Sequence record: PQ429080.1
DNA: 44,015 nucleotides
Source of the DNA: Escherichia phage vB_VIPECOTPH05B
Direction: 5' to 3' (one strand)
Shown here: positions 15,715-40,869 of the stretch, piece after piece
Position numbering within the stretch: the stretch's first letter is position 1
Layout of the letters: each line of letters begins with the position of its first letter
Program-made: the position numbers and the translations under genes
The notes under the pieces: model-generated
Database searches by the model: none
What the model was told of the DNA's origin: nothing
Seen by the model: the letters and a program-made list of their open reading frames with translations, nothing else

Positions 15715-16191
15715 TTATTTAAGTACATTAGCAGATGCATAGGTGTGCATCTTCGCTTTAGCTTTTAGATAGGCATCCCGCGCTGCTTGTTTGCAGTCAA
15801 AATGCCCGAGGTGTGTTGTCTTACCGCCTAGCTTTATGTAGGCCCGCCACTTGTTAGCGCGGGAATCCCAACAATAACCTTTCCACACAGAGTTCTGAGC
15901 ATTGCCTGATTTATCAACTAGGCGCAGGTTCTCGATTCGATTGTCTGCTTTATCCAGATTAATGTGGTCCACCATCATTCCCTCGGGTATATCCCCATGG
16001 TGCATGAACCAAATAAGCCGGTGCGCATATTCTCGTACCCGACCCAGTGCCCCACGGTCCCAGGTCACGCGGCGATATCCCCAGTTATTCTGGTAGGTAT
16101 CCCCTAAGCGTCCAGTAGCCTTGTTAATCAAGCGCCCATCTTCTGTGTAGGTATAGCGATTGGCTAGTTCTTGCAAGAGATTAATCTCCAT
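15715..16191 (-). CDS. HNH homing endonuclease with C-terminal AP2-like DNA-binding domain
   Basis: 158 aa; HNH motif (HRLIWFMHHGDIPEG ... DHINLDKADNRIENLRLV ... NAQN) and AP2-like C-terminus (WRAYIKLGGKTTHLGHFDCKQAARDAY); inserted between scaffold and capsid genes. Confidence 0.8.
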   Translation of the reverse strand: MEINLLQELANRYTYTEDGRLINKATGRLGDTYQNNWGYRRVTWDRGALGRVREYAHRLIWFMHHGDIPEGMMVDHINLDKADNRIENLRLVDKSGNAQNSVWKGYCWDSRANKWRAYIKLGGKTTHLGHFDCKQAARDAYLKAKAKMHTYASANVLK

Positions 16192-16203
16192 TATTGGTAA
16201 GTA

Positions 16204-17046
16204 TTAAAGACCTACGCGCTTACCAGCCTCACGGCGTGCGAGCAAATCATTATAACGTTGACTGAACTGCGGAGATGCCAAGCTACGGTTGCCCGCTTCC
16301 TGACGGAGTTTGGTATATTCTGCGCGGAATTCCGCAGCAGACAGAGCATTGTTGCTGGCCACGCCTCGTACCATTGGGTTCTGTGTCTTGATAAGACCCA
16401 TATCCCGGCAGAAGCTTGCTACCAGCTCGGCGGCCTGCTTGAGCTCACCCGAGTTAGCGAGTACACGAGCTGCATTACGCAGAGGTTCAGGGGCCTTGGA
16501 ATTAAACAGCTGCGCTGCTACCCCCCAGTTCTCCTTGCCGCCCACGATATCGTAAGCTTCCTGCACTGCTTTGGTGGCTTGACCAACCTGGTCCTCCAGG
16601 TACGCCTTAGCCAACAGCTCTGCATAAGCAGCGTGCTCGCCGAAACGTTCCTTAATGAAGGCCGTATCGATTAGGTTAGGGTCCTGATACTCCAGGGCCT
16701 TACCAAGTGCCCGCACCATATCAGAGTCAGTTAACCCAGAGACTCTCTGCAACATAGCTACACCGGCGTCAATCGTCGGGTTGCCTGTCTTAGCCAGCTC
16801 CTGAGGCTGCTCTTTAGCGCTATCGCCACCCTTATCCAGGGCCGCTTTTAGGGCTTCGATATCCAGAGGAATCTTAGCAGGGTCAGGGGAATCTTTGCCC
16901 TGTTGCTGCTGGGTAGTGGTCTGTGCATCCTGCACGCCTTGATTGTTCGGGGCGCTAAGGGGAGCACCTAGGCCCGGAATCTTAGGGCCGCCTTGGTTCT
17001 CTACCTGTGTAGTTTCTACGTTTTGACCGTTTTCTACGTTATCCAT
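16204..17046 (-). CDS. Scaffolding protein (T7 gp9-like)
   Basis: 280 aa, acidic, Q/A-rich, low complexity; between portal and capsid. Confidence 0.65.
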   Translation of the reverse strand: MDNVENGQNVETTQVENQGGPKIPGLGAPLSAPNNQGVQDAQTTTQQQQGKDSPDPAKIPLDIEALKAALDKGGDSAKEQPQELAKTGNPTIDAGVAMLQRVSGLTDSDMVRALGKALEYQDPNLIDTAFIKERFGEHAAYAELLAKAYLEDQVGQATKAVQEAYDIVGGKENWGVAAQLFNSKAPEPLRNAARVLANSGELKQAAELVASFCRDMGLIKTQNPMVRGVASNNALSAAEFRAEYTKLRQEAGNRSLASPQFSQRYNDLLARREAGKRVGL

Positions 17047-17060
17047 CTATGCCTCTGTTG

Positions 17061-18656
17061 TTAACTTGGTAATAAGCCCAGCTGCTTACCTGCTACTGTC
17101 GGGTCTGCTGCTGTCAAGCCCTGGAGTTGGTCCTGTGTTGCACCTGCGGATACATCGGCAGACGCATCTTGAACCTGTTGCTTCTTCTGCAGCTGCTCTT
17201 CGGTGTACATGAACGGCTCGCTGACGATACCATAGGCGTCGAAGTACCAGTCTACACACGCATCCTTGTTGAAGCGCGGAGTAATCTGCTCAAGCACCGG
17301 GATAGCCAGCTGCATGGACTGTGCCGCCTCTAACAGCTTGTCAGCTGCCGCGGCTTTAGCCAGTGCAGAAGTACCCACCGTAACGTTGATGCTCACTACA
17401 CCTTCGCTGAGGTACAGCTTAAAGCGAGGATACACAAGTGCAGTGTACAGGTACGCCAGCTTACGCAGCCAGGTGTCGCTTAGGATACTGAACCCGCCAC
17501 CCATAGCAGCTTCCGCCTCTTTGGCATTCTGGCGAATCTCGTAAGCCGTGACACGCTCGCCTTGCCGGGAGTTACCAGTGTACATAAACGCACGAGACAG
17601 TTTCTGTTCGAGCATCTGAATGTTGCTGGCAATCCACTGAATCTTCTGGGCAGAGCCACCCTCGTAAGCAGTGACGGGGGATTTGCTGTTCCCGTTGGAA
17701 CCACCACCACCCACCTGCACAGCCTCACCTGTCTCCGACGTTGAGAACTCGTCCACGTCTAACCCAGAGCTTGCGTCAATCAGTGGGATTAACCTCGCAG
17801 ACTCAACCTCGTAGTTAGTCAACGCTTCCGACAGTACCGATAATCGGGCGAAGTCCCCGGCGTAGTCCTCTACCAAGCCGCGCCCGTAGTGTTCACCGCT
17901 AACAAGGTTCCACACCAGCACGTTGTAGGGAAGCTCCAGCTCCGGGTAGGTGCTGCTGGCCCCAATGCGGTGTCCATCTGCTTCTTGGTACACCTCGTAG
18001 CTTACTACCTCTACGCCTTCCTCTGTCCGCTTAACCTTGCGACAAGCGGCAGTGTAGATATCAACGTCGCCGTATGGGTCTTTGTCACGGTAGAAGGTGC
18101 CGCGGAAATCTTCTGGCAGGTCCTGGACGCTTGCGCGCTCTCTGATAATGAGTCGCAGGACGTTACCGCTGCCATCCCTTCGAACGGTAAAGTTACGGAC
18201 TGAGTAGACGATGGATTTACCTGTCCGCTCATCAATATACTCCAACGCGTTACCTGTAACCAGCAGCAGCTTCACAGCTTGCAACTTCGCAGCATAACCG
18301 TCTTTCTCAAATACTTTCTGTGACGCCGTGTTCTCGACCTCGGCCAGCTTAGATTCTGCTGTAGCTGCACTGCCAAGCGAACTAATGAACTCGTCCAGGT
18401 CCGAACTCTTGGAGAACCGGAAGAAGCTAGTGCCTTGCGGGAACAGCGCGCCTACAATCTTAGTGGCTGCAGTGTTGACCAACTGTGCGCCGGTGCTCTG
18501 GTAATCACGCTCCAGGGGCCTGCGTCTACCGTCCAGGGAATCGTCCCGGGTAAAGATAGTGCTGAGCGTCCACTGCGCGAACTTCTCAGAGGCATCCAAG
18601 ACACCTGCGTCCTGGTCCTTCTTAAAGAGTTCTGCTAATGTTGCTTTTTGTTCCAA
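17061..18656 (-). CDS. Portal (head-tail connector) protein (T7 gp8-like)
   Basis: 531 aa; first large gene of the structural module; apparent TTG start preceded by AAGGGGG 4 nt upstream. Confidence 0.85.
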   Translation of the reverse strand: MEQKATLAELFKKDQDAGVLDASEKFAQWTLSTIFTRDDSLDGRRRPLERDYQSTGAQLVNTAATKIVGALFPQGTSFFRFSKSSDLDEFISSLGSAATAESKLAEVENTASQKVFEKDGYAAKLQAVKLLLVTGNALEYIDERTGKSIVYSVRNFTVRRDGSGNVLRLIIRERASVQDLPEDFRGTFYRDKDPYGDVDIYTAACRKVKRTEEGVEVVSYEVYQEADGHRIGASSTYPELELPYNVLVWNLVSGEHYGRGLVEDYAGDFARLSVLSEALTNYEVESARLIPLIDASSGLDVDEFSTSETGEAVQVGGGGSNGNSKSPVTAYEGGSAQKIQWIASNIQMLEQKLSRAFMYTGNSRQGERVTAYEIRQNAKEAEAAMGGGFSILSDTWLRKLAYLYTALVYPRFKLYLSEGVVSINVTVGTSALAKAAAADKLLEAAQSMQLAIPVLEQITPRFNKDACVDWYFDAYGIVSEPFMYTEEQLQKKQQVQDASADVSAGATQDQLQGLTAADPTVAGKQLGLLPS

Positions 18657-18665
18657 GCTACCCCC

Positions 18666-18929
18666 TTACAGGCCCAGAGGATTGCTCTGCCCTGCTTGTC
18701 GCCGTTTCTTCTGCTCAGATGTAATTGCATCTGCAGATGCAGAGGCAGCCCCTGCTGGGTCAATCTCAGCGATGTTATCTGCGGCGCTATTAGCCTCTAA
18801 GGCAGCCTGTTGTTTCTGTGCAGCTGCAGCTTGTTCTGCTTGCCGCTGCTGTTGTTCTAATCCTGCGTTGTCCGTAAGGCCGAGCATATCCGTGGCCTTG
18901 CCTAACAGTTTACCTAAACCACCACTCAT
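18666..18929 (-). CDS. Hypothetical small protein (87 aa), Q/A-rich
   Basis: ATG start overlaps the stop of the upstream gene (ATGA); position just before the portal is where T7-like phages carry small virion-associated proteins. Confidence 0.4.
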   Translation of the reverse strand: MSGGLGKLLGKATDMLGLTDNAGLEQQQRQAEQAAAAQKQQAALEANSAADNIAEIDPAGAASASADAITSEQKKRRQAGQSNPLGL

Positions 18930-19366
18930 TCTGACCTCACTAAATGATAAGTTGTATTGTATGTGTTATCCGATGCACCTCGGCTAATGGCGATACGCCC
19001 AGCCCGCATACTCTTAGCTATTGCGCGAAGGCCCTGCATAATCACAAGTACCGCCTTACTGTTACCCGGCTTCAATACGAAGAAGTCTGTATACAGCACA
19101 GGCTCTACGTAATGACAGTCCTCTACAGCTTCTGGGTAGTAGCTGACAGCACCGACTAAGTCGCCTTGGGAGTCATAGACTCCTAGTATATACTGTTTAC
19201 CCAGTATGCTGCCCAGTACTCTCCAGTAGTGCTGCTCTGGAGCTAGGCCCCGACTAATGCCGTGGCCCAGTTCGTGCAGTTGCCTCACTGCGTCTGTAAT
19301 GTCGTTAGACTTATACAGAATCTTGAGAGTGTAATCGGAAGTTTTACTAGTGTGTTTTAACTTCAT
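18926..19366 (-). CDS. Hypothetical protein (146 aa), first gene after RNAP
   Basis: ATG with GGAGTAGGA immediately upstream; that upstream sequence is part of a repeated element (see findings). Confidence 0.45.
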   Translation of the reverse strand: MKLKHTSKTSDYTLKILYKSNDITDAVRQLHELGHGISRGLAPEQHYWRVLGSILGKQYILGVYDSQGDLVGAVSYYPEAVEDCHYVEPVLYTDFFVLKPGNSKAVLVIMQGLRAIAKSMRAGRIAISRGASDNTYNTTYHLVRSE

Positions 19367-19388
19367 TCCTACTCCGGTAACTTCATTT
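19367..19388 (-). promoter_or_regulatory. Conserved element AAATGAAGTTACCGGAGTAGGA, copy 2 (candidate phage-RNAP promoter)
   Basis: Between the RNAP stop and the first late-side gene; 21 of 22 nt identical to the copy at 41059..41080. Confidence 0.35.
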
Positions 19389-19389
19389 A

Positions 19390-21858
19390 TCAGCAGAAGA
19401 AGAAAGGTGATTCCAATACCTGCCGGATGTCCAGAGTACCAACCTCAGGCATATCCAGGTCCGTCAAATCCGCCCCGGCGGCTGCCGCCGCGCGAGTGAT
19501 ATCCCCAAGCAGGTCGTGCTCTTCATAGAGGCGCACAAACTGTTCTCGGATGTGTCGGTGCAGAGCGTCAACATCGGCTGCATGTGTAGCCAGGGAGTCG
19601 TGAATCGGCACAATGTCCAGACCCTCGGCGGCACATAGAACCATCATCAAGTGTGTACTATCCAGGCTATGCACAAAGTTCGGGGCAATCCCAGAGGCTG
19701 CCTTGCGCTTGTTGCAGGTCTTGAAATCCCGATTATGCACGCGCATGATTGTGAGGTTCATACAGTCAATTCGTACCCGCACTTCTTCACGCTGTGTGTA
19801 GCGGTTCATTACGAGCCCACCCAGTGGCGTATACCACTGCAGGTGCTGGCTTGCCGGTACACGCCTAGCGAGGTTCTGCAAGTACGACATAACTGCCGCA
19901 GCAGCAGGGTTTGCCTCCTCGATAGCGGCGCGCATACGCGGAGCCAGGTAGCACGACAGATTCCATAGACTGTTAGTGTCGGTACCTTCATACCCCTCAG
20001 CGCAAGCGCCTTCAAAGATGTAGTCACTGCAGCTGCGCACCGTGGCGCTGTAGAAGTAGGTCATACTGGGGCGCTTGGTCATACTGCGGGTGATTTCGTT
20101 CTCTCTCCAGTACGTACTTTGGATAACGAAATCCTCCTTGTCCAGGTCCAGTATCACCTTCTCGTCCGTACGGCGCTTCACGTCCATGTACAGGTCCGCT
20201 TTCTTGTCGTTACCCTCCCAGTACAGGTTCGTTAGACGACCTCCCACAGGGTCTCTCAGGAGCGCTGAGAGGTGTTGCCCACCTGAGTTTGTAGCGTCCA
20301 TAGCAACTGGGATTCGGCTAATATGCTCTTCTGGGCATCCAGAACGCACAGCATTAACCAGATCGATAGCGGCCGCCAGAAAACACCAGGGGCTGTCTGC
20401 CTCGGCAAAAGCATGGCAATCAAACGGTGAAACCACAAGCTCTTCGAGCGCTGCAAAGTTCGCATCAACCCAAGCTGCGCGGTCTTCGAATAGGGTTTTG
20501 TCATAACCAAAGCATGTGGCGACGTGTACCTTGAGCCAGAATAGTCCCCGCTCACCCAGAGGTTTTCCTCTGCCAAACTCAAGAAGGGCTTTCTGCAAAT
20601 CAGAACCTTGGGGGTGCAGCGAGGACTTGAAGTACAGGCGGTAGCGCCAGTCCACACAAGTCGGGAAGTACAGTGCTTTCTCATCTTTGAATTCCTCTGC
20701 CATTTCCAACGTAGTCAGAAGGCTGCGCAGTTGCGATACACGCTTACGGTCGGCGCTGTACCATAGGGACATACGCGTCTTCCACTCACCGAAGCGGTCA
20801 AGCTCTTCCTCGGTGTAGTTCTCTTTCGGAACCCCGTCCAGATACCACTCCGGTTTCGGCTCCGGTACTGAGCGAGGCATACCTATCCCAACACCCAGGG
20901 CCCGTGCTTCTTGCACCAGTTCAAGTATGCGCTTATTAATACGGTATGGGGTTTCCTGTGCCTTATTAAGCGCTTTTTTGATGCCATCCGCGGACTTAAA
21001 TGCTTCCGCTACTTCACGGAGACGAGCTCTGTCAATGTGCGAGTTATGATAGGTTCCGCGATTGTCGATAGTGGTGAGGTACCCACCGTCCCACAGAGTA
21101 GTGTGCTGCACCGGCGGTACCAGCATAGGCGGCTTCATGGTTACAGTGTCAGCGGACTCTACCAGTTTCTGGAAGGCCTCCATAACGTCGTCAGCCGGAT
21201 AGAGCATGCTCAGATTCCCGCTACAGTTCTTCCACTGGAACAGTCCCGTCTCAAACACTGCGGCACACAGCAGACGCCCTACGGAGATGTTCTGGGCATT
21301 GGTCCAAGGCTCGTGCCCGTAGTGTACGTTCTCGGCACTGGCACGGAGCGTACGCAGGATGTGCGTAGGGGACTTCGTACGGCGCTCTGTGAGGTACTCA
21401 TACACGCGGTCCATGTACGCTGGGGCTACGTTGCGTAACTGCAGAGCCAGTAGCTCTGACTGTACGTTTCTGCCTAGTGCGGACATTACAGCCTGTGCAG
21501 TCTGACGGCGACTGGCGGACTCGCCGGGGGCGACGCTGAACGCCTCAAACATTGTGCACAGGCTCAGGGTGGTCAGGACATCCAAGGGGATTAAGCGCAG
21601 GAACCGGCGGTACTTCCCACCTATGCCAGGGGCTTTGACATTTCGCATCTCATCTATAGCGGCAGCAGCCACTTCGTATGCCGAAGTGAGCATACGCTGC
21701 GTCATAGGCAGGTTCATAATACCACCGTTCTGCAACGCGTCCGTAATCAGCTTACGTGCCCGCTCGATTCCGCGAATCTTATAGGCCTCTTCAAGCTCCA
21801 GCTGGCGTTTCACCAGTGCTTCCTCTGGTACTACAACCGTATTCAGGGCGCTAATCAT
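19390..21858 (-). CDS. Single-subunit DNA-dependent RNA polymerase (T7 RNAP family)
   Basis: 822 aa; T7-RNAP-like motifs (VAMDATNSGGQHLSALL; late PNFVHSLD/H-D region); located at the end of the replication block, directly upstream of structural genes. Confidence 0.95.
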   Translation of the reverse strand: MISALNTVVVPEEALVKRQLELEEAYKIRGIERARKLITDALQNGGIMNLPMTQRMLTSAYEVAAAAIDEMRNVKAPGIGGKYRRFLRLIPLDVLTTLSLCTMFEAFSVAPGESASRRQTAQAVMSALGRNVQSELLALQLRNVAPAYMDRVYEYLTERRTKSPTHILRTLRASAENVHYGHEPWTNAQNISVGRLLCAAVFETGLFQWKNCSGNLSMLYPADDVMEAFQKLVESADTVTMKPPMLVPPVQHTTLWDGGYLTTIDNRGTYHNSHIDRARLREVAEAFKSADGIKKALNKAQETPYRINKRILELVQEARALGVGIGMPRSVPEPKPEWYLDGVPKENYTEEELDRFGEWKTRMSLWYSADRKRVSQLRSLLTTLEMAEEFKDEKALYFPTCVDWRYRLYFKSSLHPQGSDLQKALLEFGRGKPLGERGLFWLKVHVATCFGYDKTLFEDRAAWVDANFAALEELVVSPFDCHAFAEADSPWCFLAAAIDLVNAVRSGCPEEHISRIPVAMDATNSGGQHLSALLRDPVGGRLTNLYWEGNDKKADLYMDVKRRTDEKVILDLDKEDFVIQSTYWRENEITRSMTKRPSMTYFYSATVRSCSDYIFEGACAEGYEGTDTNSLWNLSCYLAPRMRAAIEEANPAAAAVMSYLQNLARRVPASQHLQWYTPLGGLVMNRYTQREEVRVRIDCMNLTIMRVHNRDFKTCNKRKAASGIAPNFVHSLDSTHLMMVLCAAEGLDIVPIHDSLATHAADVDALHRHIREQFVRLYEEHDLLGDITRAAAAAGADLTDLDMPEVGTLDIRQVLESPFFFC

Positions 21859-21978
21859 AGGCGCTTAGTCTCCTTGGTTATGTCCGGTACTTCTAACTAC
21901 TGATTGCGACTTACCCAGAGATTGTACATCTCCAGGTAGTTTTTAGCGGCGAGTTCGTCGCCGCGCTCTACTGCTTTC

Positions 21979-21995
21979 TGCCACATCATGTGGCA
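21979..21995 (-). promoter_or_regulatory. Perfect 17-bp palindrome (TGCCACAT-C-ATGTGGCA) upstream of the RNAP gene
   Basis: 8-bp arms; lies 4 nt downstream of the stop of gene 22000..22461 and about 120 nt upstream of the RNAP start. Confidence 0.3.
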
Positions 21996-21999
21996 CCAC

Positions 22000-22461
22000 T
22001 CACTTGGCGTCAATGCACTTACCTCGGTGCTGCTCGTACAGTTCTGAGTACTTGTCGGACTTGGCAATGTCCTGCTCCAGCTTATCCTTGTTCCCGGCGC
22101 GCAGTCTGTACTTGAGCCGATTCCCTAAGCAGTAGCCGTAGAACTGCTCTTGTGTCATGCTGCGTGCAATGACCTCAATCGCCTCCAGGTCCGGGAAGAA
22201 CTGGTAGTGCTGAGGGGAGTTTACTGCGTCAGGCGCTTTCGGAGTACTTTTCGGCAGTCTCGTCGTACTAATCAGTTGGAAGCAGTCAGGGTCCCACGTG
22301 TGACCGTTACAGCCCTCCAGTATTAAAAGGCCGTGAAATGTGTCTGTAACAACAAGAGGGTGCCCGTCCGACATGCCTAGTTCGTGGCAGAATTGAGCCC
22401 AGTGTGGTTTCCTATGTTGTGCAAGGCGCATAACTACATCACCTTCTTTGAACTTACTCAT
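22000..22461 (-). CDS. Hypothetical protein, member 3 of the MSKFK-G-D-VV paralog family; C-terminus DUF3310-like
   Basis: 153 aa; N-terminus MSKFKEGDVVMR shared with two other genes; C-terminal HYQFFPDLEAIEVIARSMTQEQFYGYCLGNRLKYRLRAGNKDKLEQDIAKSDKY recalls the phage DUF3310 pattern (from memory, unverified). Confidence 0.5.
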   Translation of the reverse strand: MSKFKEGDVVMRLAQHRKPHWAQFCHELGMSDGHPLVVTDTFHGLLILEGCNGHTWDPDCFQLISTTRLPKSTPKAPDAVNSPQHYQFFPDLEAIEVIARSMTQEQFYGYCLGNRLKYRLRAGNKDKLEQDIAKSDKYSELYEQHRGKCIDAK

Positions 22462-22880
22462 TTAATAGTCTCCCGTGCTTTGCGTCGTGCCCGGGCCTTG
22501 CGGGCCTTGAGCTTCTGTGCCTGTGCCAATTCTTCCGGCGTCTTGTGCGTATAGTATAGCATATCCGTGGGTTCACGGTCTAAGTAATCGGCGACCCTAC
22601 GTAGAGATTCAGCAATAGCCCTAGAAGATTGCATGCTACCAACAATCCAGCGCCCAGCGGCAGATGCCACTTTGCCTTCCCCTCCATTGCATGAGCGATG
22701 AAGAGCACCCCGAATACGCCCAGTAATATGATCGTGGTCAACGACAACAGAATCACCAGTTACCCCCTTTATTGTGAAGTCCAAAGGTTTGCCACAAAGG
22801 AGGCATATGCCTCCTTGGTCTTTGGCAAGCTTAATAGCCACGGAGCGAATCTGTGCCCGTGTAATCTTACGTAGGCTCAT
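22458..22880 (-). CDS. Endonuclease VII-like (Holliday-junction resolvase type)
   Basis: Cys-rich zinc site plus DHDHITGRIRGALHRSCN motif, basic C-terminal tail; start taken as the first in-frame ATG (M4 of the track ORF), which overlaps the upstream stop as ATGA. Confidence 0.7.
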   Translation of the reverse strand: MSLRKITRAQIRSVAIKLAKDQGGICLLCGKPLDFTIKGVTGDSVVVDHDHITGRIRGALHRSCNGGEGKVASAAGRWIVGSMQSSRAIAESLRRVADYLDREPTDMLYYTHKTPEELAQAQKLKARKARARRKARETIK

Positions 22881-23080
22881 GCAATACAATCCTCCACCGC
22901 CAAGATTCTGCGGTAGGTGCGCTGCACCCTGCGAAGTTGCTTCTTAGTAGGGCGCGCCCAGAAGAACCAGTAGTAGGTTTCGCTAGGGCTACTGACGGTC
23001 CACATGTACGTAAAGGGATATGGGTTGCAGTTTACGCACTCCCGATGCTTTTTACGTGGTGCTTCAACGTTCAAATTCAT
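22877..23080 (-). CDS. Hypothetical protein (67 aa), Cys/aromatic-rich
   Basis: ORF with ATG start, tightly packed between neighbours; CVNCNPYPF may be a small zinc-binding element. Confidence 0.4.
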   Translation of the reverse strand: MNLNVEAPRKKHRECVNCNPYPFTYMWTVSSPSETYYWFFWARPTKKQLRRVQRTYRRILAVEDCIA

Positions 23081-23274
23081 AGTTCAATCTCCCCGACTAC
23101 ATCCAGCAGAGCATTGTCGTGAATGAGAGAATCCAAATGCTCAACCGTTCTTCGATGTGTTTTGGGTGCCCGTTCACGCAGCGCATCCAGAATAGTTTCA
23201 AGTTCATCATGTTTCCCCTCATAGTATAACTCAATCGCCCGCAGGCTCATTTCCTTCGCAGACATCTTCGCCAT
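23077..23274 (-). CDS. Hypothetical protein (about 65 aa from internal ATG)
   Basis: Track ORF extends to 23343 but would overlap the exonuclease 3' end by over 100 nt; the ATG at 23274 has AGGAG about 11 nt upstream. Confidence 0.4.
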   Translation of the reverse strand: MAKMSAKEMSLRAIELYYEGKHDELETILDALRERAPKTHRRTVEHLDSLIHDNALLDVVGEIEL

Positions 23275-24199
23275 TGTCTGGGTGCTCCTGTATCCACTGT
23301 ATATGCTGTTTATGGTACTCGTGCAGCGAATGCACCCAGTCACGTAGACTGGGAGTAGTCAACAGTGACATCAGATACAGATACGCTGAATCTGATTGGG
23401 AGCGTCTCAGCCACAGGCATTCTGCCTCTGCGAGTACGTCTTGGTTGTTTCGAGCATAGGCCGCTACAACGAATTCTGCGGCGTCCTGCTCCGAGGTAAT
23501 AGGGTAGATAGCATCAAAGGCCGTTCGCTTCCCACAGAGCTTCCCATCAAGCAATGTGATGCCTTTGACATTATCCGCGTCATCCCCTGCTAGCATTTGC
23601 CACCAGAAGAACTTAGTGCCGTGCGCTCGTACCGGCATAGCCTGGGTATCGTCCCACTTAATCCAGCCGAATGGGTTATCCAAGGCAGGCCACACGGTTC
23701 CGGTAGGGATATCGAACCGAGCCATAGGGCTTAGCCAGGAATCCTTGTCCTGCGACATCAGGATTCCCCGGTCCCCGAAGCTGTACGAATCCATTACAAA
23801 GAGGTCGTCGGCCTCAAAGTAGTCACTGCTTACCACCTGTATGCCATGCTCAGAATACTGGTCCGGGTTCTCAATCAGGTGCCGCTTCAACGGTGCCTTG
23901 AGTGGCAGCTCCTGACGCTTATTGCGGTTCCCTTGGTACGGCTTAGCCGTAGGCAGGTGCCAGCGCAGGCACTTAGCACACCCCGTAGGCGTCAGATACG
24001 CCACTGCTTCTGAGCAGCCGACCAGGAACATGTCCTCAAGCAGTAGCTGATAGAAGCGGCGGATTGCGGTGTCCAAACGTTTCACTGTAGCGGCAGATTT
24101 ATAAACTGTGAAATCCGCGTCATACAGCAGAATCTTCCCAGAGTTCTGTGGAGCTAACTGCTCCCCGAGCTGGGACAAGTCAACCCCGTTGATAATCAT
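23231..24199 (-). CDS. 5'-3' exonuclease (T7 gp6 / FEN-like)
   Basis: 322 aa; acidic clusters typical of the FEN/PIN-like fold (YDADFTVYK, FEADDLFVMD, GDDADNVKG). Confidence 0.85.
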   Translation of the reverse strand: MIINGVDLSQLGEQLAPQNSGKILLYDADFTVYKSAATVKRLDTAIRRFYQLLLEDMFLVGCSEAVAYLTPTGCAKCLRWHLPTAKPYQGNRNKRQELPLKAPLKRHLIENPDQYSEHGIQVVSSDYFEADDLFVMDSYSFGDRGILMSQDKDSWLSPMARFDIPTGTVWPALDNPFGWIKWDDTQAMPVRAHGTKFFWWQMLAGDDADNVKGITLLDGKLCGKRTAFDAIYPITSEQDAAEFVVAAYARNNQDVLAEAECLWLRRSQSDSAYLYLMSLLTTPSLRDWVHSLHEYHKQHIQWIQEHPDNGEDVCEGNEPAGD

Positions 24200-24357
24200 T
24201 AGCGCCCCGTAATATCACGGGCCTTCTTGTCGGCCCAGTTAACCCAACGCTCTGCCCACTTTGCCTTGCTGAGCTTGTCGCCCAGGTAGCATAGTCCCGC
24301 CAACGGAATCAGTGGGAGAATCAAAGCTACGTAAATTGCGCGAGATACGTACAGCAT
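24199..24357 (-). CDS. Small putative membrane protein (52 aa)
   Basis: Hand-translated (below the 60-aa track cutoff): MLYVSRAIYVALILPLIPLAGLCYLGDKLSKAKWAERWVNWADKKARDITGR; one hydrophobic helix; TAA stop overlaps the exonuclease ATG (TAATG). Confidence 0.3.
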   Translation of the reverse strand: MLYVSRAIYVALILPLIPLAGLCYLGDKLSKAKWAERWVNWADKKARDITGR

Positions 24358-24359
24358 AA

Positions 24360-24557
24360 TTAAATCTCCAGTCTAGCTACTGATTTAGCTGCCAACTTCA
24401 CCTGCTTGCGGGTAGGTTTAGCGGCCCAGCGCACCACATACATGGTGCCAGGGTCGTCCTCCCGGATAAAGGTTACGTACCAGCGGTTGCAGGCATGTTC
24501 AGCATAAGGTGCCATAAAGCTGTGTCTAGGTGCAGACACCTTTACACGTACGCTCAT
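24360..24557 (-). CDS. Hypothetical protein (65 aa)
   Basis: ATG start; tightly packed between two small membrane-protein ORFs. Confidence 0.4.
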   Translation of the reverse strand: MSVRVKVSAPRHSFMAPYAEHACNRWYVTFIREDDPGTMYVVRWAAKPTRKQVKLAAKSVARLEI

Positions 24558-24559
24558 GC

Positions 24560-24721
24560 TTAAATCTCCAAATTGGCGGTAAAAGCACGGATTGCACGGG
24601 TTAGCACAGATACACCCTTTGCGCCGCCTACCACACTAAGCGCCAATGCCATTAACGTCAAGCCAACTGCGAGTAGCGCCAGCGCAGGAACTAAGATTAT
24701 GTAGGATATAAGTTTACGCAT
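24560..24721 (-). CDS. Small putative membrane protein (53 aa)
   Basis: Hand-translated: MRKLISYIILVPALALLAVGLTLMALALSVVGGAKGVSVLTRAIRAFTANLEI; hydrophobic core consistent with one or two TM helices; ATG overlaps the upstream TGA stop. Confidence 0.3.
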   Translation of the reverse strand: MRKLISYIILVPALALLAVGLTLMALALSVVGGAKGVSVLTRAIRAFTANLEI

Positions 24722-25095
24722 CATTCACCCTCCAGTTCAGAAAGCACCAGCACGGTGCCGAGCATGTCCCCGATTACTTCCGGAGTACGCAGACTCTGGT
24801 CTGCATCGTAAATACAGGAACCAATCTCCGCCAGCCCGATGCTGAGCGTGCCCACTACACGGATAATCACGAGGTCATCACCTCGCAGCTTATCGGCATG
24901 TGCCGCCAGGTCGTTGTGCTCTTTGAAGGCAGTGGCGGCCAGCTCCAGGTCCATGCCGTATAGGGCCGCTAACTCATCTAATGCGTTGTAGATATCATCC
25001 AGGCTAATGTTGCGTACACTGTACGCTGCTGAATCATATACTGCAGCACTAACTGTGATAGCCAGATTCTTGTATGCGTCTAATACTTTATCCAT
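24721..25095 (-). CDS. Hypothetical protein (124 aa), acidic
   Basis: ATG start, four nucleotides after the stop of the upstream gene. Confidence 0.45.
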   Translation of the reverse strand: MDKVLDAYKNLAITVSAAVYDSAAYSVRNISLDDIYNALDELAALYGMDLELAATAFKEHNDLAAHADKLRGDDLVIIRVVGTLSIGLAEIGSCIYDADQSLRTPEVIGDMLGTVLVLSELEGE

Positions 25096-25098
25096 TGC

Positions 25099-25353
25099 TT
25101 ATACCCCCAGGAAGTTAACTACTTCATCACGCTTAGCGCGCAGTTTATCGGCCTGCTCGGCATGCTTCGCCGCTTCATCTTTGCTGTGCTTGGAGGCTTC
25201 TACGCGCGCCTCAGATTGAGCGGCCAGACGCACGGCGTCGTCTGCGAACTTAACTGACAGCTGCTCGTTAAACTGCGCTTTGGCATCGGCGCGTTTAGCT
25301 TCTGCTGTGTAGGCTGCACTCAGGAGTTTGATGAGAATGTTGATGATGTTCAT
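25099..25353 (-). CDS. Hypothetical protein (84 aa), likely coiled-coil
   Basis: ATG with GAGGAAG 5 nt upstream; A/K/E-rich heptad-like sequence. Confidence 0.45.
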   Translation of the reverse strand: MNIINILIKLLSAAYTAEAKRADAKAQFNEQLSVKFADDAVRLAAQSEARVEASKHSKDEAAKHAEQADKLRAKRDEVVNFLGV

Positions 25354-25564
25354 AGGCTTCCTCTAAGGCCCCATGCGGGGCCATATTAGTTTAGATTAGT
25401 GTCGTTTAGCTTTGTGTGCAGAGTGCACTTCGGGGCTAGTAGACTTCTCCGAAAGCAGGGAGTCGCGTCTGGCTTTCATATCAGCAACAAGCCCGTTAAG
25501 GCGCACAGCTAAAGATAGCATGTATTCAAGGCTTCTTTGTCTGTTCACGGATACCTCCGGTATA

Positions 25565-28037: not shown

Positions 28038-30391
28038 TCTACTTTCTCCTTACTGTACATACTCGTACCCATCTCAGCCTCTGCTGGGAACGGGACCTCA
28101 CCAATGATACCGTAGTTAGGCCAGAGCTGGTGGATACGCTTAGGTGCGTCCTCCATGCACTGCTTAACCAGCAGGCTCGCCTCACGTCCAACCTCCGGGT
28201 TGGCGCTGTCCAGATACAATGCATCGTGTACGTTCGTAATCAGGCACACCTGATTGTCGAACCAGTCACGGGCCAGGAGTGCACGCAGAACCATACCAGC
28301 CGCCACCGCCATCAGGAAGAATGCTTCCCCCTGGCACCAGTAGTTAGCCATCTCGGTTTCCTTGTAGTCCATGACCTTCTGCTTACGCTGCCCAGGCACA
28401 ACCTCCTTCCACTGCTCCTTCTGGCGGAAGCTATAGCGGGCACCGGCTGGGCTGGTCCACGTCCCAATGCGATACAGTCGGTAGCTGCCGTCGTCCGCCT
28501 GCTCGCGGTACATGCGCCCCTCGTTCCCGGTACGCTCTACCTCTTCCTTGACAACAGCACGGAATCCGATGGTGTCTGGAAACAGCTTCGCCTCGTTATC
28601 CAGGAACGACTGCGCATACTCCACTGTACAGCCTGTAGCAAACGCGATCCCTTTAGCCGTAGCCCCGTACTGTGCAGCAAAGCTGGGCGGCTTAATATCA
28701 GTACGCTGCTGCTTCCAGTACTTGTAGTCCGGTCCGTCTGGGTTATGGCAGAGGTCGTACATCTCCTCGTACGTCTTACCTTCCTTGAACGCTAGGCGAT
28801 AGCAGTGCATGTCCGTGCCCGCCTGTAGTAACCCCAATAATTTGCGGTCTCCAGTGTGAACACAAGACATAACCACTTCCAGGGCAGAGTAGTCAACCTC
28901 AGTGATACGACCAGCTTCTCCGAAACGAGAGGTGAACATCTGCTTAACCCGGCTTGTGCCATCGCGCGGTAGATTCTGGAGGTTCGGGTTAGAGCCCGAC
29001 AGTCGCCCGGTGACAGTGGCACAGGTGTTAAGACGGTGGTGGATAATACCTGAACCATCAGGGTTCTGAGGTATGACGTATTGAAGCATGCCCGAGGTCT
29101 TTTTAACTGACCCATCTTCGTTGTACTCCGTTCTCAGGTAATAGGTCCCTGTGTCTTTCTCTAGAGCACCTAACTCGTTTACCAATCGGCAGAGCTCGAA
29201 ACCTTGGCGAGCCAGTGCCTCCATTGCGTCAGTGCTGGTGCTGTATACTGGCGTACCGTCCTGCAGGGTGCGCGCCTGTCGGAACTCTCCGCGCTCTGCG
29301 TACTTCTCCCGGATAACTTCCGGAAGCTCCTGTATGTTCACCAGTCCCGGGCAGAAGTAAAGGTCATCCTCCCACTTGAGCTTCTCCTCGTCAGTGTCCA
29401 CTCGGAACACTTTAGGTAGGCCCTTGTTCTTCCCTGCTTTGTAGACTACGTAATTGTGAGGTCCAGAGACGTCCGTGCTTTCACATGGTACGAATGTTCC
29501 ATCAGTGCCCTGTACCAGATATGCGTCATACTTAACGTACTGCGGAGGGTCATAGGGTACCTTCTTGCGGTACTTGATAGGCCCGCCGTATACCAGTGCA
29601 GACATATGGAAGTCCGAGCCGAAGTTGAAATCCAGTGTCTCCGGCAAGTCCTTCGGGATGTACTGCTGCAGCTCCTGCTTAATCTCACGGATGCGCTGCT
29701 CCTGCTCCTCCTGGTTCTTGCGCGCAATTGGCATGTTCACGAACAGGCCGAACCATTGACAATAGCTCCAAGCTAGTACTGCCTCCATCCGTTCGTAGAC
29801 ATATTGCATCTGGTTGCGTTCGGCGAATAGGGCGCATTGCCCATAGAAGCACAGCCCGGTATTTGGCACGTCACCGTTGACAAGGTAATCGTGAAGCAGG
29901 TACGGGTCAATTTCGGAAGTCCGCTTTCCTTGCTCCCACAGTATCTTTACCCCATCGACTTTGTGCTGACCACCCCATTTTGGGGCGGTCTCATCTAGCC
30001 CCGGATACATCTCCTGGAAATCTGAGGCTATGTACTGCCCATGCTGCGTACAATATACGCGCCCGCCGCGCTTTAGGAAATCCTCAAAATGTTTTCTCTG
30101 ATATGAGAGGAACCAAGACACCTCGAAGCTGCTGTTGTGCGCGACTATCATAGTGCAGTGTTCTGGTATGGAAAACCACTGGTGCGGCCCCTCGTTGTCC
30201 GCCAGAAACTCAGCCTTGTTGTTGAAGCGAATACTGAATACGTCCCCTATATGCAACTGCCCGGCATCGTCCACCGTGTCTATGCGGTATGCGCTTTCTA
30301 CAACATAGTTATCGGGGCAGTACGGGGATGCTACGTTGCCGTAGTACTCAAAGTTCTCGACCTCTAAATCCACTATCATAATCTGGTACAT
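28034..30391 (-). CDS. DNA polymerase, family A (T7 gp5-like) with N-terminal 3'-5' exonuclease domain
   Basis: 785 aa; DnaQ-like exo motif near the N-terminus (IVDLEVENFEY) and Pol I-type polymerase motifs in the C-terminal half. Confidence 0.95.
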   Translation of the reverse strand: MYQIMIVDLEVENFEYYGNVASPYCPDNYVVESAYRIDTVDDAGQLHIGDVFSIRFNNKAEFLADNEGPHQWFSIPEHCTMIVAHNSSFEVSWFLSYQRKHFEDFLKRGGRVYCTQHGQYIASDFQEMYPGLDETAPKWGGQHKVDGVKILWEQGKRTSEIDPYLLHDYLVNGDVPNTGLCFYGQCALFAERNQMQYVYERMEAVLAWSYCQWFGLFVNMPIARKNQEEQEQRIREIKQELQQYIPKDLPETLDFNFGSDFHMSALVYGGPIKYRKKVPYDPPQYVKYDAYLVQGTDGTFVPCESTDVSGPHNYVVYKAGKNKGLPKVFRVDTDEEKLKWEDDLYFCPGLVNIQELPEVIREKYAERGEFRQARTLQDGTPVYSTSTDAMEALARQGFELCRLVNELGALEKDTGTYYLRTEYNEDGSVKKTSGMLQYVIPQNPDGSGIIHHRLNTCATVTGRLSGSNPNLQNLPRDGTSRVKQMFTSRFGEAGRITEVDYSALEVVMSCVHTGDRKLLGLLQAGTDMHCYRLAFKEGKTYEEMYDLCHNPDGPDYKYWKQQRTDIKPPSFAAQYGATAKGIAFATGCTVEYAQSFLDNEAKLFPDTIGFRAVVKEEVERTGNEGRMYREQADDGSYRLYRIGTWTSPAGARYSFRQKEQWKEVVPGQRKQKVMDYKETEMANYWCQGEAFFLMAVAAGMVLRALLARDWFDNQVCLITNVHDALYLDSANPEVGREASLLVKQCMEDAPKRIHQLWPNYGIIGEVPFPAEAEMGTSMYSKEKVE

Positions 30392-30392
30392 A

Positions 30393-30866
30393 CTAAACCT
30401 CTAAATATCCCAGAGAATTGGCGGCCGCCTTTCTGGCAGCAGCGGCCTCTTCCAGTGAGTGGAATCTTCCCAAACGCACTTGCTTTCCGTCCCGGTTTAC
30501 GTATGCCGACCAGCGTTTCCGCCTGGCATCGTATGACACCCCGGGGACTCCAGAACTATTGCGCTTATCCGTGGTTTTGTTTCGGTTATTTAGTGTCACC
30601 GGAACTGCCCTGAGATTGTCAATACGGTCGTCTTCCCGGTTTCGGTTTATGTGGTCTATAACGCACCCACTAGGAATATCCCCGTAGTGCATTTCCCAAA
30701 CAATCCTTGCGCGTTTGTACGCCCTTCCATTTAACCCCACAACCCAGCGGTTGTGGTGCCTTTCCAGGTACCCCGCCAATTTACCAGGCTGACACGCGCC
30801 ATTTGGGCTGGTGTGGGTCCAGTATAGTTTACCATCCTTGTACGTGAAGTGTTCTTTCCAGTTCAT
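30393..30866 (-). CDS. HNH homing endonuclease with AP2-like domain (paralog of 15715..16191)
   Basis: HNH motif (RIVWEMHYGDIPSGCVIDHINRNREDDRIDNLRAV) and AP2-like C-terminus (WSAYVNRDGKQVRLGRFHSLEEAAAARKAA); track ORF begins at GTG 30872, first ATG is 30866. Confidence 0.8.
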   Translation of the reverse strand: MNWKEHFTYKDGKLYWTHTSPNGACQPGKLAGYLERHHNRWVVGLNGRAYKRARIVWEMHYGDIPSGCVIDHINRNREDDRIDNLRAVPVTLNNRNKTTDKRNSSGVPGVSYDARRKRWSAYVNRDGKQVRLGRFHSLEEAAAARKAAANSLGYLEV

Positions 30867-31018: not shown

Positions 31019-31040
31019 AATCTCCTCCTGTGTACCTACA

Positions 31041-31063: not shown

Positions 31064-31069
31064 GGGAAG

Positions 31070-31396: not shown

Positions 31397-32669
31397 TAAC
31401 CTGACCCTCATCAAATCTACAACGTCCAGGCTCGAATCCCACCTCGAATTGCAGGAGCGACTCTTTACCAGATAGTGCCATCTTGTTCTTAGGAGTACTG
31501 ATACCGCGGACGTTTTGCATGTGCGGCTGCTCATTTCTGTCCAAGCACCCCATCATAATCGCCAAGTCCAAGGCACCCTGTACGCCAATCTTGCTCTGCT
31601 TCATAGCGGTGAGCGGAGGAAAGAGCATGTTGTAACCTTCGAGTGAAAGCTGCATAGTGCCTACTATAGCGCAGTCATTCTCGCACCCAAGTATGCGCAG
31701 CTCCTGCCATTTCGCTTCGAGGTTCTGGTGCTCGGTCTCCATAGTACCGCCACGGATGTTAGCCACCATGTCGATGATGATTACCGCGGGGCGCATCTCC
31801 TCCATGAGTGTGGATATCTGGGCCATCGTCAAGGAGTGCGCAGCCTTAACACGAATCCGGTCAGCCCTGCCTACTTTCTTGAGGTAGGCTGGCACGAACT
31901 CTTGCTTACTGTGCCGGTCCTTAATCTCAGCCAGAGTCCAGTGTAGCGCCGCTTGATATACCCTCGGCACTGTGCGCGTCGCCGGACCCTCGTTAACCAG
32001 CCAGAGGATAGGGCGGTCCCCGTACACTTCCGGCTGCTGCTGCATTTGCTCAGCAAAATCCACAGCAATAGCAGCAAGCAGACTAGTTTTACCAGAGTCC
32101 ACAGGAGCAGCCACTGCGATGCAGTCCCCGCCACGTAGACCTCGGATGTTGCTAGCGAGTTGCTCGAACACGCCCAGTTTAAGACCGCCGCTCTCATCAG
32201 TCGCGGCAAGTATCTCGTCAACACTACCGCTCTCCCATTCAAGCAGCGAATCATGCACCGCAGCGCCATCACCGTACTTGCGCTGCAGGTGCTTCATCTC
32301 CAGTAGGTAATCAATCTCCTCGCCGTCTTGGTAGCGTTGCGTAAGCGCCGCAACCTCCCCACTATAGGCCAGCTCGTTCAGGGTCTGGACAATCCCTACC
32401 ACAGAATCCTGCGGCACGGCTTGTACCCCCCGCATAAGCTCATCCATGATTACCCGCTCTTCCCGGGATAAGTGCCCGGCCCGGAGATTGAGCATGCTCT
32501 GCATCGCATCCCACTGCACCTCCTGGTGCTCCGGATACGTGTTCCAGTACAGCCCCACCCAGTCCAGAAGGTTCGAAGTATCCGGAGCAAGCATCGACTT
32601 AGGTATCTGCTCTCTCAGGCGGCTCCATACCTTCTGCGTGCACATTGCACGAACAACTATAAGGTCCAA
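31389..32669 (-). CDS. Replicative DNA helicase (DnaB-like / T7 gp4 helicase-domain-like)
   Basis: 426 aa; Walker A (VDSGKTSLL) and RecA-like core motifs; apparent TTG start with AAGGAGGT 6 nt upstream (first ATG would be 32645). Confidence 0.85.
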   Translation of the reverse strand: MDLIVVRAMCTQKVWSRLREQIPKSMLAPDTSNLLDWVGLYWNTYPEHQEVQWDAMQSMLNLRAGHLSREERVIMDELMRGVQAVPQDSVVGIVQTLNELAYSGEVAALTQRYQDGEEIDYLLEMKHLQRKYGDGAAVHDSLLEWESGSVDEILAATDESGGLKLGVFEQLASNIRGLRGGDCIAVAAPVDSGKTSLLAAIAVDFAEQMQQQPEVYGDRPILWLVNEGPATRTVPRVYQAALHWTLAEIKDRHSKQEFVPAYLKKVGRADRIRVKAAHSLTMAQISTLMEEMRPAVIIIDMVANIRGGTMETEHQNLEAKWQELRILGCENDCAIVGTMQLSLEGYNMLFPPLTAMKQSKIGVQGALDLAIMMGCLDRNEQPHMQNVRGISTPKNKMALSGKESLLQFEVGFEPGRCRFDEGQVNV

Positions 32670-40033: not shown

Positions 40034-40062
40034 AAGTTACTCAGTGAATCAGAACTTGTCAA
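40034..40062 (-). promoter_or_regulatory. Candidate sigma70-type early promoter (TTGACA - 17 nt - TAACTT)
   Basis: Perfect -35 hexamer, 17-nt spacer, weak -10; in the ORF-free leader about 250 nt upstream of the first early gene. Confidence 0.3.
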
Positions 40063-40263
40063 GCGTTTATTTCTTACTGCATCGGGAGCCTGTTAACCTC
40101 CCCTGTGAGCTGTAGCCCCTCAGCGGGCGACTCTCTGGCTCCTGCCTTGCTCCACCACGGTGGGACACTTGCCGGGCTAGTCACGCCCTTGTTGGGTTGT
40201 AGTACCCTTCGGAACTGCTACCGTGGGAGCCGGTAGCGACCCTTACTACTTACTTCGGGATTC

Positions 40264-40292
40264 AATCTAGCTTATGTTCTTCGCGGTGTCAA
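40264..40292 (-). promoter_or_regulatory. Candidate sigma70-type early promoter (TTGACA - 17 nt - TAGATT) with A-rich upstream tract
   Basis: Minus strand reads GATAAAAAGAG-TTGACA-CCGCGAAGAACATAAGC-TAGATT; perfect -35, 17-nt spacer, 4 of 6 at -10. Confidence 0.4.
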
Positions 40293-40461
40293 CTCTTTTT
40301 ATCGAGTATCTAACCCTTCACACTATCTAGCCTTAATCCGGCGGAGCCTCCCGGCTAGGCCCCGGTTAGCCTAGCTAGTCGCTAGTGCCTCCCGGTGATT
40401 GAACTATAGCCCTATAGAACCAAAAGAAGCAAGCACTATTTTCAACTTTTTATCTCTGAGA

Positions 40462-40494
40462 GCAAAAAGGGTAAGCAGACCCCTAAAGGTCTGC
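40462..40494 (-). terminator. Possible terminator-like hairpin at the 3' end of the HNH gene
   Basis: GCAGACC-6 nt loop-GGTCTGC stem overlapping the HNH stop codon, followed on the minus transcript by UUACCCUUUUUG. Confidence 0.3.
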
Positions 40495-40869
40495 GTGCAG
40501 TAAGCTATTGTAATCCCCATAGGTTACGTCGAACTCTCGCCAGTTAGTGTCGTAGTCCGGACTAGCCAATAACTCCTCTTTTGTGAAACATCTCCCCTCC
40601 TTAATCTGCGCTAGGTGAATGGCGCGGTGAGTGTCGGCGCTAACCAATATCAGGTTATCAAAGGCGCAGTTAAGACGGTTACTGTCACAGTGATGTACAT
40701 GGTAGCCAGAGCCGTAGCTAGTGATACCCAGTGCATCCATAACCACGGCTCTATGCAGCGCCATAGTCCTACGGTCCTTTTTACCGTTCTTACGTATACA
40801 CGCTGGACCAGCACCGTTAATCACTGGATAGCCCTCTTTATCAACCACAATCTTAAATGTTCTAGCCAC
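40483..40869 (-). CDS. HNH endonuclease (third HNH gene in the window)
   Basis: 128 aa; HVHHCDSNRLNCAFDNLILVSADTHRAIH motif; apparent GTG start with TAAGGAG 8 nt upstream; flanked by the two longest ORF-free stretches. Confidence 0.7.
   Translation of the reverse strand: MARTFKIVVDKEGYPVINGAGPACIRKNGKKDRRTMALHRAVVMDALGITSYGSGYHVHHCDSNRLNCAFDNLILVSADTHRAIHLAQIKEGRCFTKEELLASPDYDTNWREFDVTYGDYNSLLHADL

Follow-up and report, generated by a model that had tools for sequence, protein, structure and literature searches.

The free-standing Seg and Mob endonucleases of phage T4 are the model for intergenic homing with co-conversion. I-HmuI and I-HmuII, from the Bacillus phages SPO1 and SP82, are among the closest systems described. 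HNH-AP2 homing endonuclease genes situated beside polymerase and capsid genes have been described in ICP1 and other phages (PMC10448857), and the Xanthomonas phages Xp10, OP1, and Xop411 present a gain-and-decay series of such genes (PMC2248197). That homing endonuclease genes of the HNH-AP2 and H-N-H kinds neighbour polymerase and capsid genes in phages is already on record, and GenBank annotates the very genes considered here.

The window, a stretch of 44,015 nucleotides, is the genome of the Klebsiella podophage vB_VIPKPNMC07C (Drulisvirus, PQ505478.1) in circularly permuted and reverse-complemented form. A sequence-only reading had called three HNH endonuclease genes in this DNA, and both the coordinates and the assignment proved correct, with HNH_3 above the Pfam cut-off in 3/3. 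All genes, including the three HNH ORFs (HNH1, HNH2, and HNH3), are carried by the minus strand. We consider it probable, at roughly 85%, that the three ORFs of this Drulisvirus are homing endonuclease genes of the free-standing type, selfish and mobile. The relevant features are as follows.

15715..16191, minus strand: HNH1, endonuclease gene with HNH_3 and AP2 domains, flanked by the scaffold and capsid genes (Pfam, PHROG, PQ505478.1 annotation)
15703..16203, minus strand: HNH1 cassette, 501 bp, filling the scaffold-capsid intergenic slot (junction alignment)
15603..15702, minus strand: first 100 nt of the capsid gene, apparently moving with the HNH1 cassette (association and divergence tests)
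14683-15702, minus strand: capsid gene
16204-17046, minus strand: scaffold gene
30393..30866, minus strand: HNH2, endonuclease gene with HNH_3 and AP2 domains, inserted precisely where the DNA polymerase gene begins; 30872 is an alternative GTG start
28034-30391, minus strand: DNA polymerase gene, adjoining HNH2
29642..30391, minus strand: polymerase nucleotides 1-750, HNH2-linked allele with the DxE exonuclease-motif codons
30863..31018, minus strand: conserved 51-aa ORF at the left edge of the HNH2 slot, its stop overlapping the HNH2 start (ATGA)
40483..40869, minus strand: HNH3, H-N-H endonuclease gene that starts with GTG behind a strong Shine-Dalgarno sequence; counted inward from the left genome end, it is the first gene
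40479..40954, minus strand: HNH3 cassette, ~476 bp (comparison with Kp2, VLCpiA1k, and KPPK108.1)
40460..40494, minus strand: candidate terminator over the HNH3 stop codon, a hairpin GCAGACC-TTTAG-GGGTCTGC with a T-rich tail (consensus match)
41290..41580 (extent approximate), minus strand: region with homology to the direct terminal repeat found at the left physical genome end in relatives

HNH1 (158 aa), HNH2 (157 aa), and HNH3 (128 aa) matched Pfam HNH_3 (PF13392, curated gathering threshold 24.8 bits) with 73.0 bits (E=1.5e-20), 63.0 bits (E=2e-17), and 31.7 bits (E=1.2e-7), respectively. All three also matched PHROG families named 'HNH endonuclease', the label that each already bears in the PQ505478.1 record. 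Against the curated AP2 cut-off of 33.3 bits (PF00847), HNH2 scored 33.0 bits (E=7.3e-8), slightly under the cut-off, and HNH1 scored 21.1 bits (E=3.8e-4); the Pfam search gave no AP2 match in HNH3. AP2 was matched at E<=0.01 by 11/14 members of the family comprising HNH1 and HNH2, and the 14-member profile matched the plant AP2 proteins WRI1 (E=1.6e-8) and TEM1 (E=0.0027); the C-terminal AP2 domain of HNH1 and HNH2 is very likely genuine. The same profile matched I-HmuI (PDB 1U3E) with E=1e-12. Residues D75/H76/N88/N97 of HNH1 and D71/H72/N84/N93 of HNH2 align with D74/H75/N87/N96 of 1U3E, which we take to be the catalytic and metal-binding residues of I-HmuI. Across the 14 family members His-76, Asn-88, and Asn-97 (HNH1 numbering) are invariant, and Asp-75 is kept in at least 90%. 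The translation of HNH3 displays the classical H-N-H variant, H59-H60...N72...H81/H85; a sequence search of the PDB with HNH3 returned nothing, and no recognised DNA-binding domain was found in the protein.

HNH1 and HNH2 had been proposed to be paralogs, and their alignment agrees with this, giving 35-41% identity (41% over 96 aa, E=8e-21). A recent duplication within the genome was ruled out because each gene is 61-97% identical to its site-specific orthologues in other phages, compared with only 35-41% between the two. By these identities, both genes belong to one family, in which they are long-standing members and not recent duplicates. When eight Drulisvirus HNH proteins were searched against the window with tblastn, no HNH copies or remnants besides HNH1-3 were detected. 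A 13-aa match at 23234-23272 was rejected as a remnant, because it belongs to the exonuclease gene, whose native 3' end it forms; in VLCpiA1k an inserted HNH gene is fused to the exonuclease gene. Scanning the window with Rfam gave no RNA family at the gathering threshold and no intron, and in one relative Rfam places a group I intron in the DNA polymerase gene. HNH1, HNH2, and HNH3 are separate ORFs between genes, outside any intron or intein.

The distribution of the genes was determined in 272 related phage records and 160 IMG/VR loci. HNH1 is present in 21/272 records, HNH2 in 19/272 (14 full length), and HNH3 in 22/272 (14 full length); in IMG/VR, HNH1 occurs in 13/60 Drulisvirus capsid loci and HNH2 in 5/~65 polymerase loci. 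Kp2, at ~92% identity among the closest phages outside the near-identical isolate group, has none of the three, and VLCpiA1k has three HNH genes in slots partly different from those of the window. When the relatives were inspected for an ancestral, syntenic origin, no such picture emerged, each gene being absent from most of them. The closest overall relatives lack the HNH genes and some more distant phages carry them, which argues against a purely vertical history, in which ancient accessory genes of the Slopekvirinae would have been lost repeatedly, would be immobile today, and would owe their patchiness to deletion only. We regard such a history as improbable, and the individual slots bear on it in both directions.

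HNH1 lies between the scaffold and capsid genes, as had been read from the sequence. Junction alignment with Kp2 and VLCpiA1k shows empty sites in both, with a 25-bp spacer where the window has the 501-bp cassette, the 3' end of which provides the ribosome-binding site of the capsid gene. HNH1 itself shows no evident Shine-Dalgarno sequence. Across 80 IMG/VR capsid loci the scaffold-capsid gap measures 9-66 bp or 472-506 bp. Alleles in this slot are 44-97% identical at the amino acid level and include that of phiKDA1 (genus Koutsourovirus); occupation of the same slot in another genus would fit vertical descent, as would truncated copies, such as the HNH1 genes shortened to 96 aa in L070 and L075, and deletion scars, which point to frequent loss. 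The empty sites of Kp2 are of a different kind, however, its 25-bp spacer and the ATGA overlap at the HNH2 slot being scar-free, unlike true deletion derivatives. HNH1 is also discordant with its surroundings. HNH1 together with nucleotides 1-100 of the capsid gene differs from phi1_146001 at 3/601 positions, compared with 71/1888 in the flanks (p=5e-6), and from RCIP0099 at 159/606 positions, compared with 143/1890 in the flanks (p=4e-30). HNH1 is thus 99.4% identical where the flanks are ~96% identical and 72% identical where they are ~92% identical, indicating that its history differs from that of the flanks, which is difficult to reconcile with loss from a vertically inherited state. Capsid nucleotides 1-100 show 0/100 differences to phi1_146001 and KPPK108.1, with flanks at ~4-5%. 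Association with HNH1 presence is limited to capsid nucleotides 1-60, where 11 sites reached p<1e-3 in tests that take haplotypes as independent, though the haplotypes are related; the final 300 nt of the scaffold gene contained no associated site. The first 100 nt of the capsid gene may represent the co-conversion tract of HNH1, and this region probably holds the HNH1 target or immunity site.

HNH2 had been placed right after the DNA polymerase gene, which needs correction: with every gene on the minus strand, HNH2 directly precedes the polymerase gene on its 5' (upstream) side and meets it at the start codon. Junction alignment positions HNH2 at the ATGA junction between the 51-aa ORF and the polymerase gene, and in Kp2, without the HNH gene, the stop of the 51-aa ORF overlaps the polymerase start through the same ATGA. 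In the window, HNH2 is translationally coupled to the 51-aa ORF. The alleles in this slot are 42-94% identical in amino acid sequence and include that of KP34. Many unrelated inserts occupy the slot among relatives, in support of the suggestion that these sites are insertion hot spots. The window's allele of polymerase nucleotides 1-750 is found with at least 89% identity only in 9 loci with HNH2 or its deletion scar and in L105, where the region upstream of the polymerase gene was not recovered; ~55 other Drulisvirus loci have at most 76% identity to the window over these nucleotides. HNH2, in turn, occurs only together with this allele. As the genomes are mosaic throughout, some of the linkage at HNH1 and HNH2 could be ordinary recombination block structure. 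Four loci (L101, L142, L146, and L148) carry a deletion at a microhomology (AGCAGCCA) that leaves the ~35 last nt of HNH2. The linked flanking alleles of HNH1 and HNH2 and the discordant divergence of HNH1 fit homing with co-conversion.

HNH3 had been described as lying between two ORF-free regions. The ORF-free stretches are indeed present, but they correspond to the genome terminus and the early promoter region. AttikonH4, with a terminal repeat at 1-297, and KPPK108.1, with one at 1-244, both have their position 1 at window 41579-41580, and the region upstream of HNH3 is free of ORFs because 41290..41580 is homologous to the terminal repeat of relatives. The right boundary of the HNH3 cassette is sharp at 40478/40479 in comparison with three different relatives, and Kp2 and VLCpiA1k have an unrelated 170-210 bp in its position. 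The HNH3 gene of RCIP0082 has a 92-nt deletion. A promoter and terminator scan of the HNH3 region gave sites no more numerous than in shuffled sequence. Beyond five near-identical isolates, the nearest copies of HNH2 are only ~88% identical and those of HNH3 are at 94% identity or less, which gives no indication that either gene was transferred recently; the lack of near-identical copies of HNH2 and HNH3 in otherwise diverged genomes would fit vertical inheritance with repeated loss.

The positions of the genes also bear on whether one or more of them has been domesticated, as a packaging HNH (HK97 gp74-like), as a nuclease against competing phages or host DNA, or as an AP2 regulator of the downstream capsid or polymerase gene. 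HNH1 is located among the head genes and HNH3 leads the early genes next to the terminal repeat, yet no HNH gene adjoins the terminase genes, the gene for the large subunit being at window 1-1857, distant from all three. Autographiviridae package from terminal repeats, not cos sites. A packaging-associated HNH of the HK97 gp74 type was ruled out, the genes being distant from terminase, absent in most relatives, and dispensable. I-HmuI-type enzymes reportedly favour flanking markers in mixed infection, which would suit a nuclease in service of its phage. Other systems have recruited AP2-type DNA-binding domains of homing-endonuclease origin as repressors (PMC10448857), but the intact catalytic residues speak against a purely regulatory role. 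Each gene is missing from most viable relatives, so no HNH gene is essential, and we consider domestication highly unlikely.

The suggestion that these are homing-type endonucleases is instead supported by their domains with intact catalytic residues, sporadic presence, precise slots with empty counterparts in relatives, alleles linked in the flanks, divergence at odds with the surroundings, and products of decay. During co-infection, such an enzyme would nick or cut a related genome without the gene near the empty slot. HNH1 would probably act within the first few tens of capsid-gene bases, HNH2 in the 5' portion of the polymerase gene, and HNH3 in early non-coding DNA adjoining the terminal repeat. 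Recombinational repair on the gene-bearing template would then copy the endonuclease gene and adjacent markers into the recipient, with differences in the target sequence shielding the carrier genome, and copies would spread before decaying and being lost by deletion. The enzymatic activity of HNH1-3, nicking or double-strand cutting, their target positions, and their current mobility are predictions from sequence comparison. More tentatively, and in our view less likely than not, the endonuclease genes may set the boundaries of exchanged Drulisvirus modules, with HNH2 dragging the 750-nt 5' allele of the polymerase gene and HNH1 the first 100 nt of the capsid gene, and with HNH3 cutting co-infecting relatives early and excluding their markers. 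If so, they would influence how mosaic the phages become and which of them prevail in therapeutic mixtures against Klebsiella. The weight for basic biology is small and the practical value modest; Drulisviruses are used in Klebsiella therapy cocktails, where homing endonucleases, if active, could skew recombination and the inheritance of markers among related phages in a mixture, and the empty sites, linked alleles, and deletion scars mapped here are ready substrates for testing such bias.

When comparing the window with the known systems, the N-terminal region and His-Asn-Asn core of I-HmuI align with HNH1 and HNH2 (E=2.4e-4 for the single sequence, E=1e-12 for the profile), the alignment stopping short of their C-terminal AP2 part. 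HNH2 shares with I-HmuI its association with a DNA polymerase gene, but the I-HmuI gene resides in a group I intron, and HNH1 and HNH2 are free-standing. By analogy with I-HmuI, it is plausible that HNH1 and HNH2 make a strand-specific nick and not a double-strand cut. Homologues of HNH3 in other podophages include KPPK108.1 gp01, an 'HNH homing endonuclease' in the same slot with 55% amino acid identity, and proteins of Acinetobacter, Dickeya, Pectobacterium, and Providencia phages and of PhAPEC5/7 at 33-48% identity; the more distant ones are at other genome positions, some beside or inside polymerase genes. The PhAPEC5/7 homologue is labelled 'HNH endonuclease inducing intron mobility'. The HNN-AP2 and IPA-HNH genes (PMC2248197, PMC10448857) resemble HNH1 and HNH2, as described, in their two-domain layout, and resemble the genes of the window in being dispersed over ~44 kb, in lying beside polymerase and capsid genes, and in forming an intact-truncated-deleted series. 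Hosts and phage genus differ, and the Xanthomonas phages carry six to eight copies in genomes of the same size compared with three in the window; as VLCpiA1k also has three, the view that three such genes in 44 kb constitute a high load was not upheld. The T4 Seg proteins are GIY-YIG enzymes and the Mob proteins are HNH enzymes without an AP2 domain, whereas HNH1 and HNH2 combine HNH with AP2, and HNH1-3 are known here from sequence. Like the genes of the window, those of T4 are intergenic beside a conserved essential gene, with the cut presumably made in the recipient's adjacent gene, and they co-convert flanking markers, for which capsid nucleotides 1-100 and polymerase nucleotides 1-750 are the candidate counterparts in the window.

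When window 14000-32000 was compared by megablast with the phage collection, the matches at 100% identity were vB_VIPKPNMC07C (PQ505478.1), a Klebsiella phage, and its four sister isolates; the search also gave about 270 related records, of which 235 are Klebsiella phages. PQ505478.1, which is 44,014 bp long, belongs to Drulisvirus (Autographiviridae, Slopekvirinae), and the window is its reverse-complemented and circularly permuted form (record position = 45872 - window position), so that every gene lies on the window minus strand; the first window base falls within the gene for the terminase large subunit. In this record, three genes whose coordinates are exactly those proposed by the sequence-only reading are annotated "HNH endonuclease", and all three are intact ORFs.

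15715-16191, minus strand: HNH1, 158 aa
30393-30866, minus strand: HNH2, 157 aa; alternative start at a GTG six bases upstream
40483-40869, minus strand: HNH3, 128 aa, GTG start
30863-31018, minus strand: conserved 51-aa ORF ending in ATGA

HNH1, HNH2, and HNH3 exceed the Pfam HNH_3 threshold and fall in PHROG HNH endonuclease families, and no further HNH copies or remnants are present in the window. The AP2 domain previously ascribed to two of them is retained with qualification, as HNH2 (33.0 bits, E=7e-8) and HNH1 (21.1 bits, E=3.8e-4) score below the Pfam cut-off of 33.3 bits; AP2 was not detected in HNH3 in the Pfam search. Alignment of HNH1 with HNH2 gave 41% identity over 96 residues. 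A family profile built from a 14-member alignment of the HNH1 and HNH2 lineages together matches WRI1 (1.6e-8) and TEM1 (0.0027) at their AP2 domains, and 11 of the 14 members match Pfam AP2 at E<=0.01. As a single sequence HNH1 matches I-HmuI (1U3E), a nicking enzyme encoded in an intron, at E=2.4e-4, and the profile does so at 1e-12; the I-HmuI residues D74/H75/N87/N96 align with D75/H76/N88/N97 of HNH1 and D71/H72/N84/N93 of HNH2. His-76, Asn-88, and Asn-97 (HNH1 numbering) are invariant in the alignment, and Asp-75 is kept in at least 90% of members. HNH3 reads as a classical His-Asn-His arrangement (HH60...N72...H81..H85), with no solved relative found by sequence. HNH1, HNH2, and HNH3 each behave as a homing endonuclease gene of the free-standing type; we infer their cleavage activity, whether they nick or cut, and their exact targets.

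In the related phages Kp2 and VLCpiA1k, 25 bp separate the scaffold stop from the capsid start, and in the window this gap holds a 501-bp cassette whose last bases re-form the capsid ribosome-binding site. In 80 capsid loci from IMG/VR this gap measures 9-66 bp or 472-506 bp, and the longer form encodes an HNH1-family protein in every case (44-97% identity), Koutsourovirus included. Across 58 unique Drulisvirus haplotypes, variants associated with HNH1 presence occur only in capsid nt 1-60 (11 sites at p<1e-3), and the final 300 nt of the scaffold gene contain none. Taken together, the cassette and capsid nt 1-100 show 3/601 differences from phi1_146001 (flanks 71/1888, p=5e-6), 6/601 from KPPK108.1 (91/1888), 63/601 from XP4 (81/1888), and 159/606 from RCIP0099 (143/1890), a mismatch indicating that this unit has a separate history, as would be predicted if homing co-converts a short tract downstream. 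The rival reading, vertical descent alone with loss occurring again and again, is weakened by the discordant divergence of HNH1 and by the clean empty sites, but may hold for HNH2 and HNH3, neither of which shows recent transfer. We read the three homing genes as different stages of a cycle of invasion, decay, and loss.

By blastn HNH1 occurs in 21 records, 12 at 89-100% identity, 7 full length at ~72-73%, and 2 (phiKDA1) partial at 72%. It is 5'-truncated to 96 aa in two loci, and the 73% allele group (L029, L060, L067, L068, L072, L073, and L083 at ~1011-1487; L008:6014-6439) has no ATG at the window's start-codon position, the annotated start in RCIP0099 being internal; these alleles may start at a non-canonical codon or be partially disabled. 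A second HNH1-like gene (36-40% amino acid identity) is found in many relatives between the tail tubular protein A gene and a small ORF that follows the capsid gene (~2950-3270 in L020, L027, L046, L047, L051, L052, L054, L057, L061, L063, L065, L066, and L069), a position occupied in the window by nothing but an 86-bp spacer (14403-14488).

HNH2, placed "right after" the polymerase gene by the sequence-only reading, is immediately upstream in the direction of transcription. The ATG within the ATGA of the 51-aa ORF is the polymerase gene start in Kp2 and the HNH2 start in the window and like phages; here the polymerase gene restarts one base past the HNH2 stop, with its ribosome-binding site embedded in the HNH2 coding sequence. 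Over its first 750 nt the polymerase gene exists in two allelic forms. Ten IMG/VR loci have the window allele (at least 89% identity): five carry HNH2, one lacks upstream sequence, and in four (L101, L142, L146, L148) a deletion across the microhomology AGCAGCCA has fused the small ORF with the final ~35 nt of HNH2. Elsewhere in Drulisvirus, about 55 loci reach at most 76% identity in this region, and none carries HNH2. In KP34 and VLCpiA1k the slot is occupied by a 61%-identical allele. Varied inserts at the same ATGA bear out the proposed insertion hot spots, and the HNH2 slot is a true one. The blastn search found HNH2 in 19 records, 14 of them with the full-length gene, and the closest non-clonal copy is 88% identical.

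The unrelated inserts of this hypervariable slot, which start at the same overlap (window 30863-30866 junction), are 60-aa ORFs, CxxC (zinc-finger-type) HNH genes, and a methyltransferase-like ORF (~238 aa); loci with other inserts here are L102, L108, L115, L117, L118, L123, L125, and L127. In several relatives the polymerase gene itself is interrupted at residue 572/573, either by a 231-bp group I intron (L141:3212-3420; Rfam RF00028, 70.6 bits) or by a 621-bp form without an Rfam match (L149, L155); the window gene (28034-30391) is uninterrupted. At the exonuclease gene 3' end, a slot empty in the window, VLCpiA1k carries an HNH gene (L003:27898-28407) ending in frame with the last 13 exonuclease codons as in the window (23234-23272).

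HNH3 does lie between two ORF-free regions, and these can now be identified. Position 1 of relatives with determined physical ends (terminal repeats 244-297 bp) corresponds to window 41579-41580, making the upstream stretch the genome terminus and the downstream stretch the early promoter region; the relatives' left end and direct repeat map from ~41580 downward (41290-41580), so the repeat is collapsed to a single copy in the window. The cassette has its left edge near 40954, and homology to Kp2, VLCpiA1k, and KPPK108.1 restarts exactly at 40478, five bases beyond the HNH3 stop. The slot holds unrelated 170-210 bp in Kp2 and VLCpiA1k and a 55%-identical homologue in KPPK108.1, and the RCIP0082 copy has a 92-nt 5' deletion. 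HNH3 is found in 22 records by blastn (14 full length) and its family in 26 Klebsiella phage records by tblastn, with distant homologues in other podophages. Just upstream of the cassette is a hairpin (40957-40991, minus strand; GGATAGC..CCTAC-GCA-GTAGG..GCTATCC) whose outer stem in relatives is TATGGC/GCCATA, TATGTC/GACATA, or TAATGC/GCATTA, apparently compensatory, with a folding z-score of only -1.96.

Setting aside the near-identical isolates, Kp2 is among the closest relatives, and it has no HNH gene at all; of the three in VLCpiA1k, just one shares its slot with the window, as a 39%-identical allele. A domesticated role for these genes is unlikely because most relatives manage without each of them. 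Apart from the points corrected here, the sequence-only reading is correct.

The three genes are an already known kind of feature, already annotated in PQ505478.1. HNH-AP2 ("HNN-AP2", "IPA-HNH") homing endonuclease genes have been described in phages, often near polymerase and capsid genes (PMC10448857), and homing endonuclease content differs between closely related Drulisviruses (PMC7013548). Three copies in 44 kb, earlier taken as a high load, are not unusual, since Xop411, Xp10, and OP1, Xanthomonas phages of 44 kb, have eight, seven, and six such genes, respectively, with the same range from intact to degenerate copies as the Drulisvirus HNH genes (PMC2248197).
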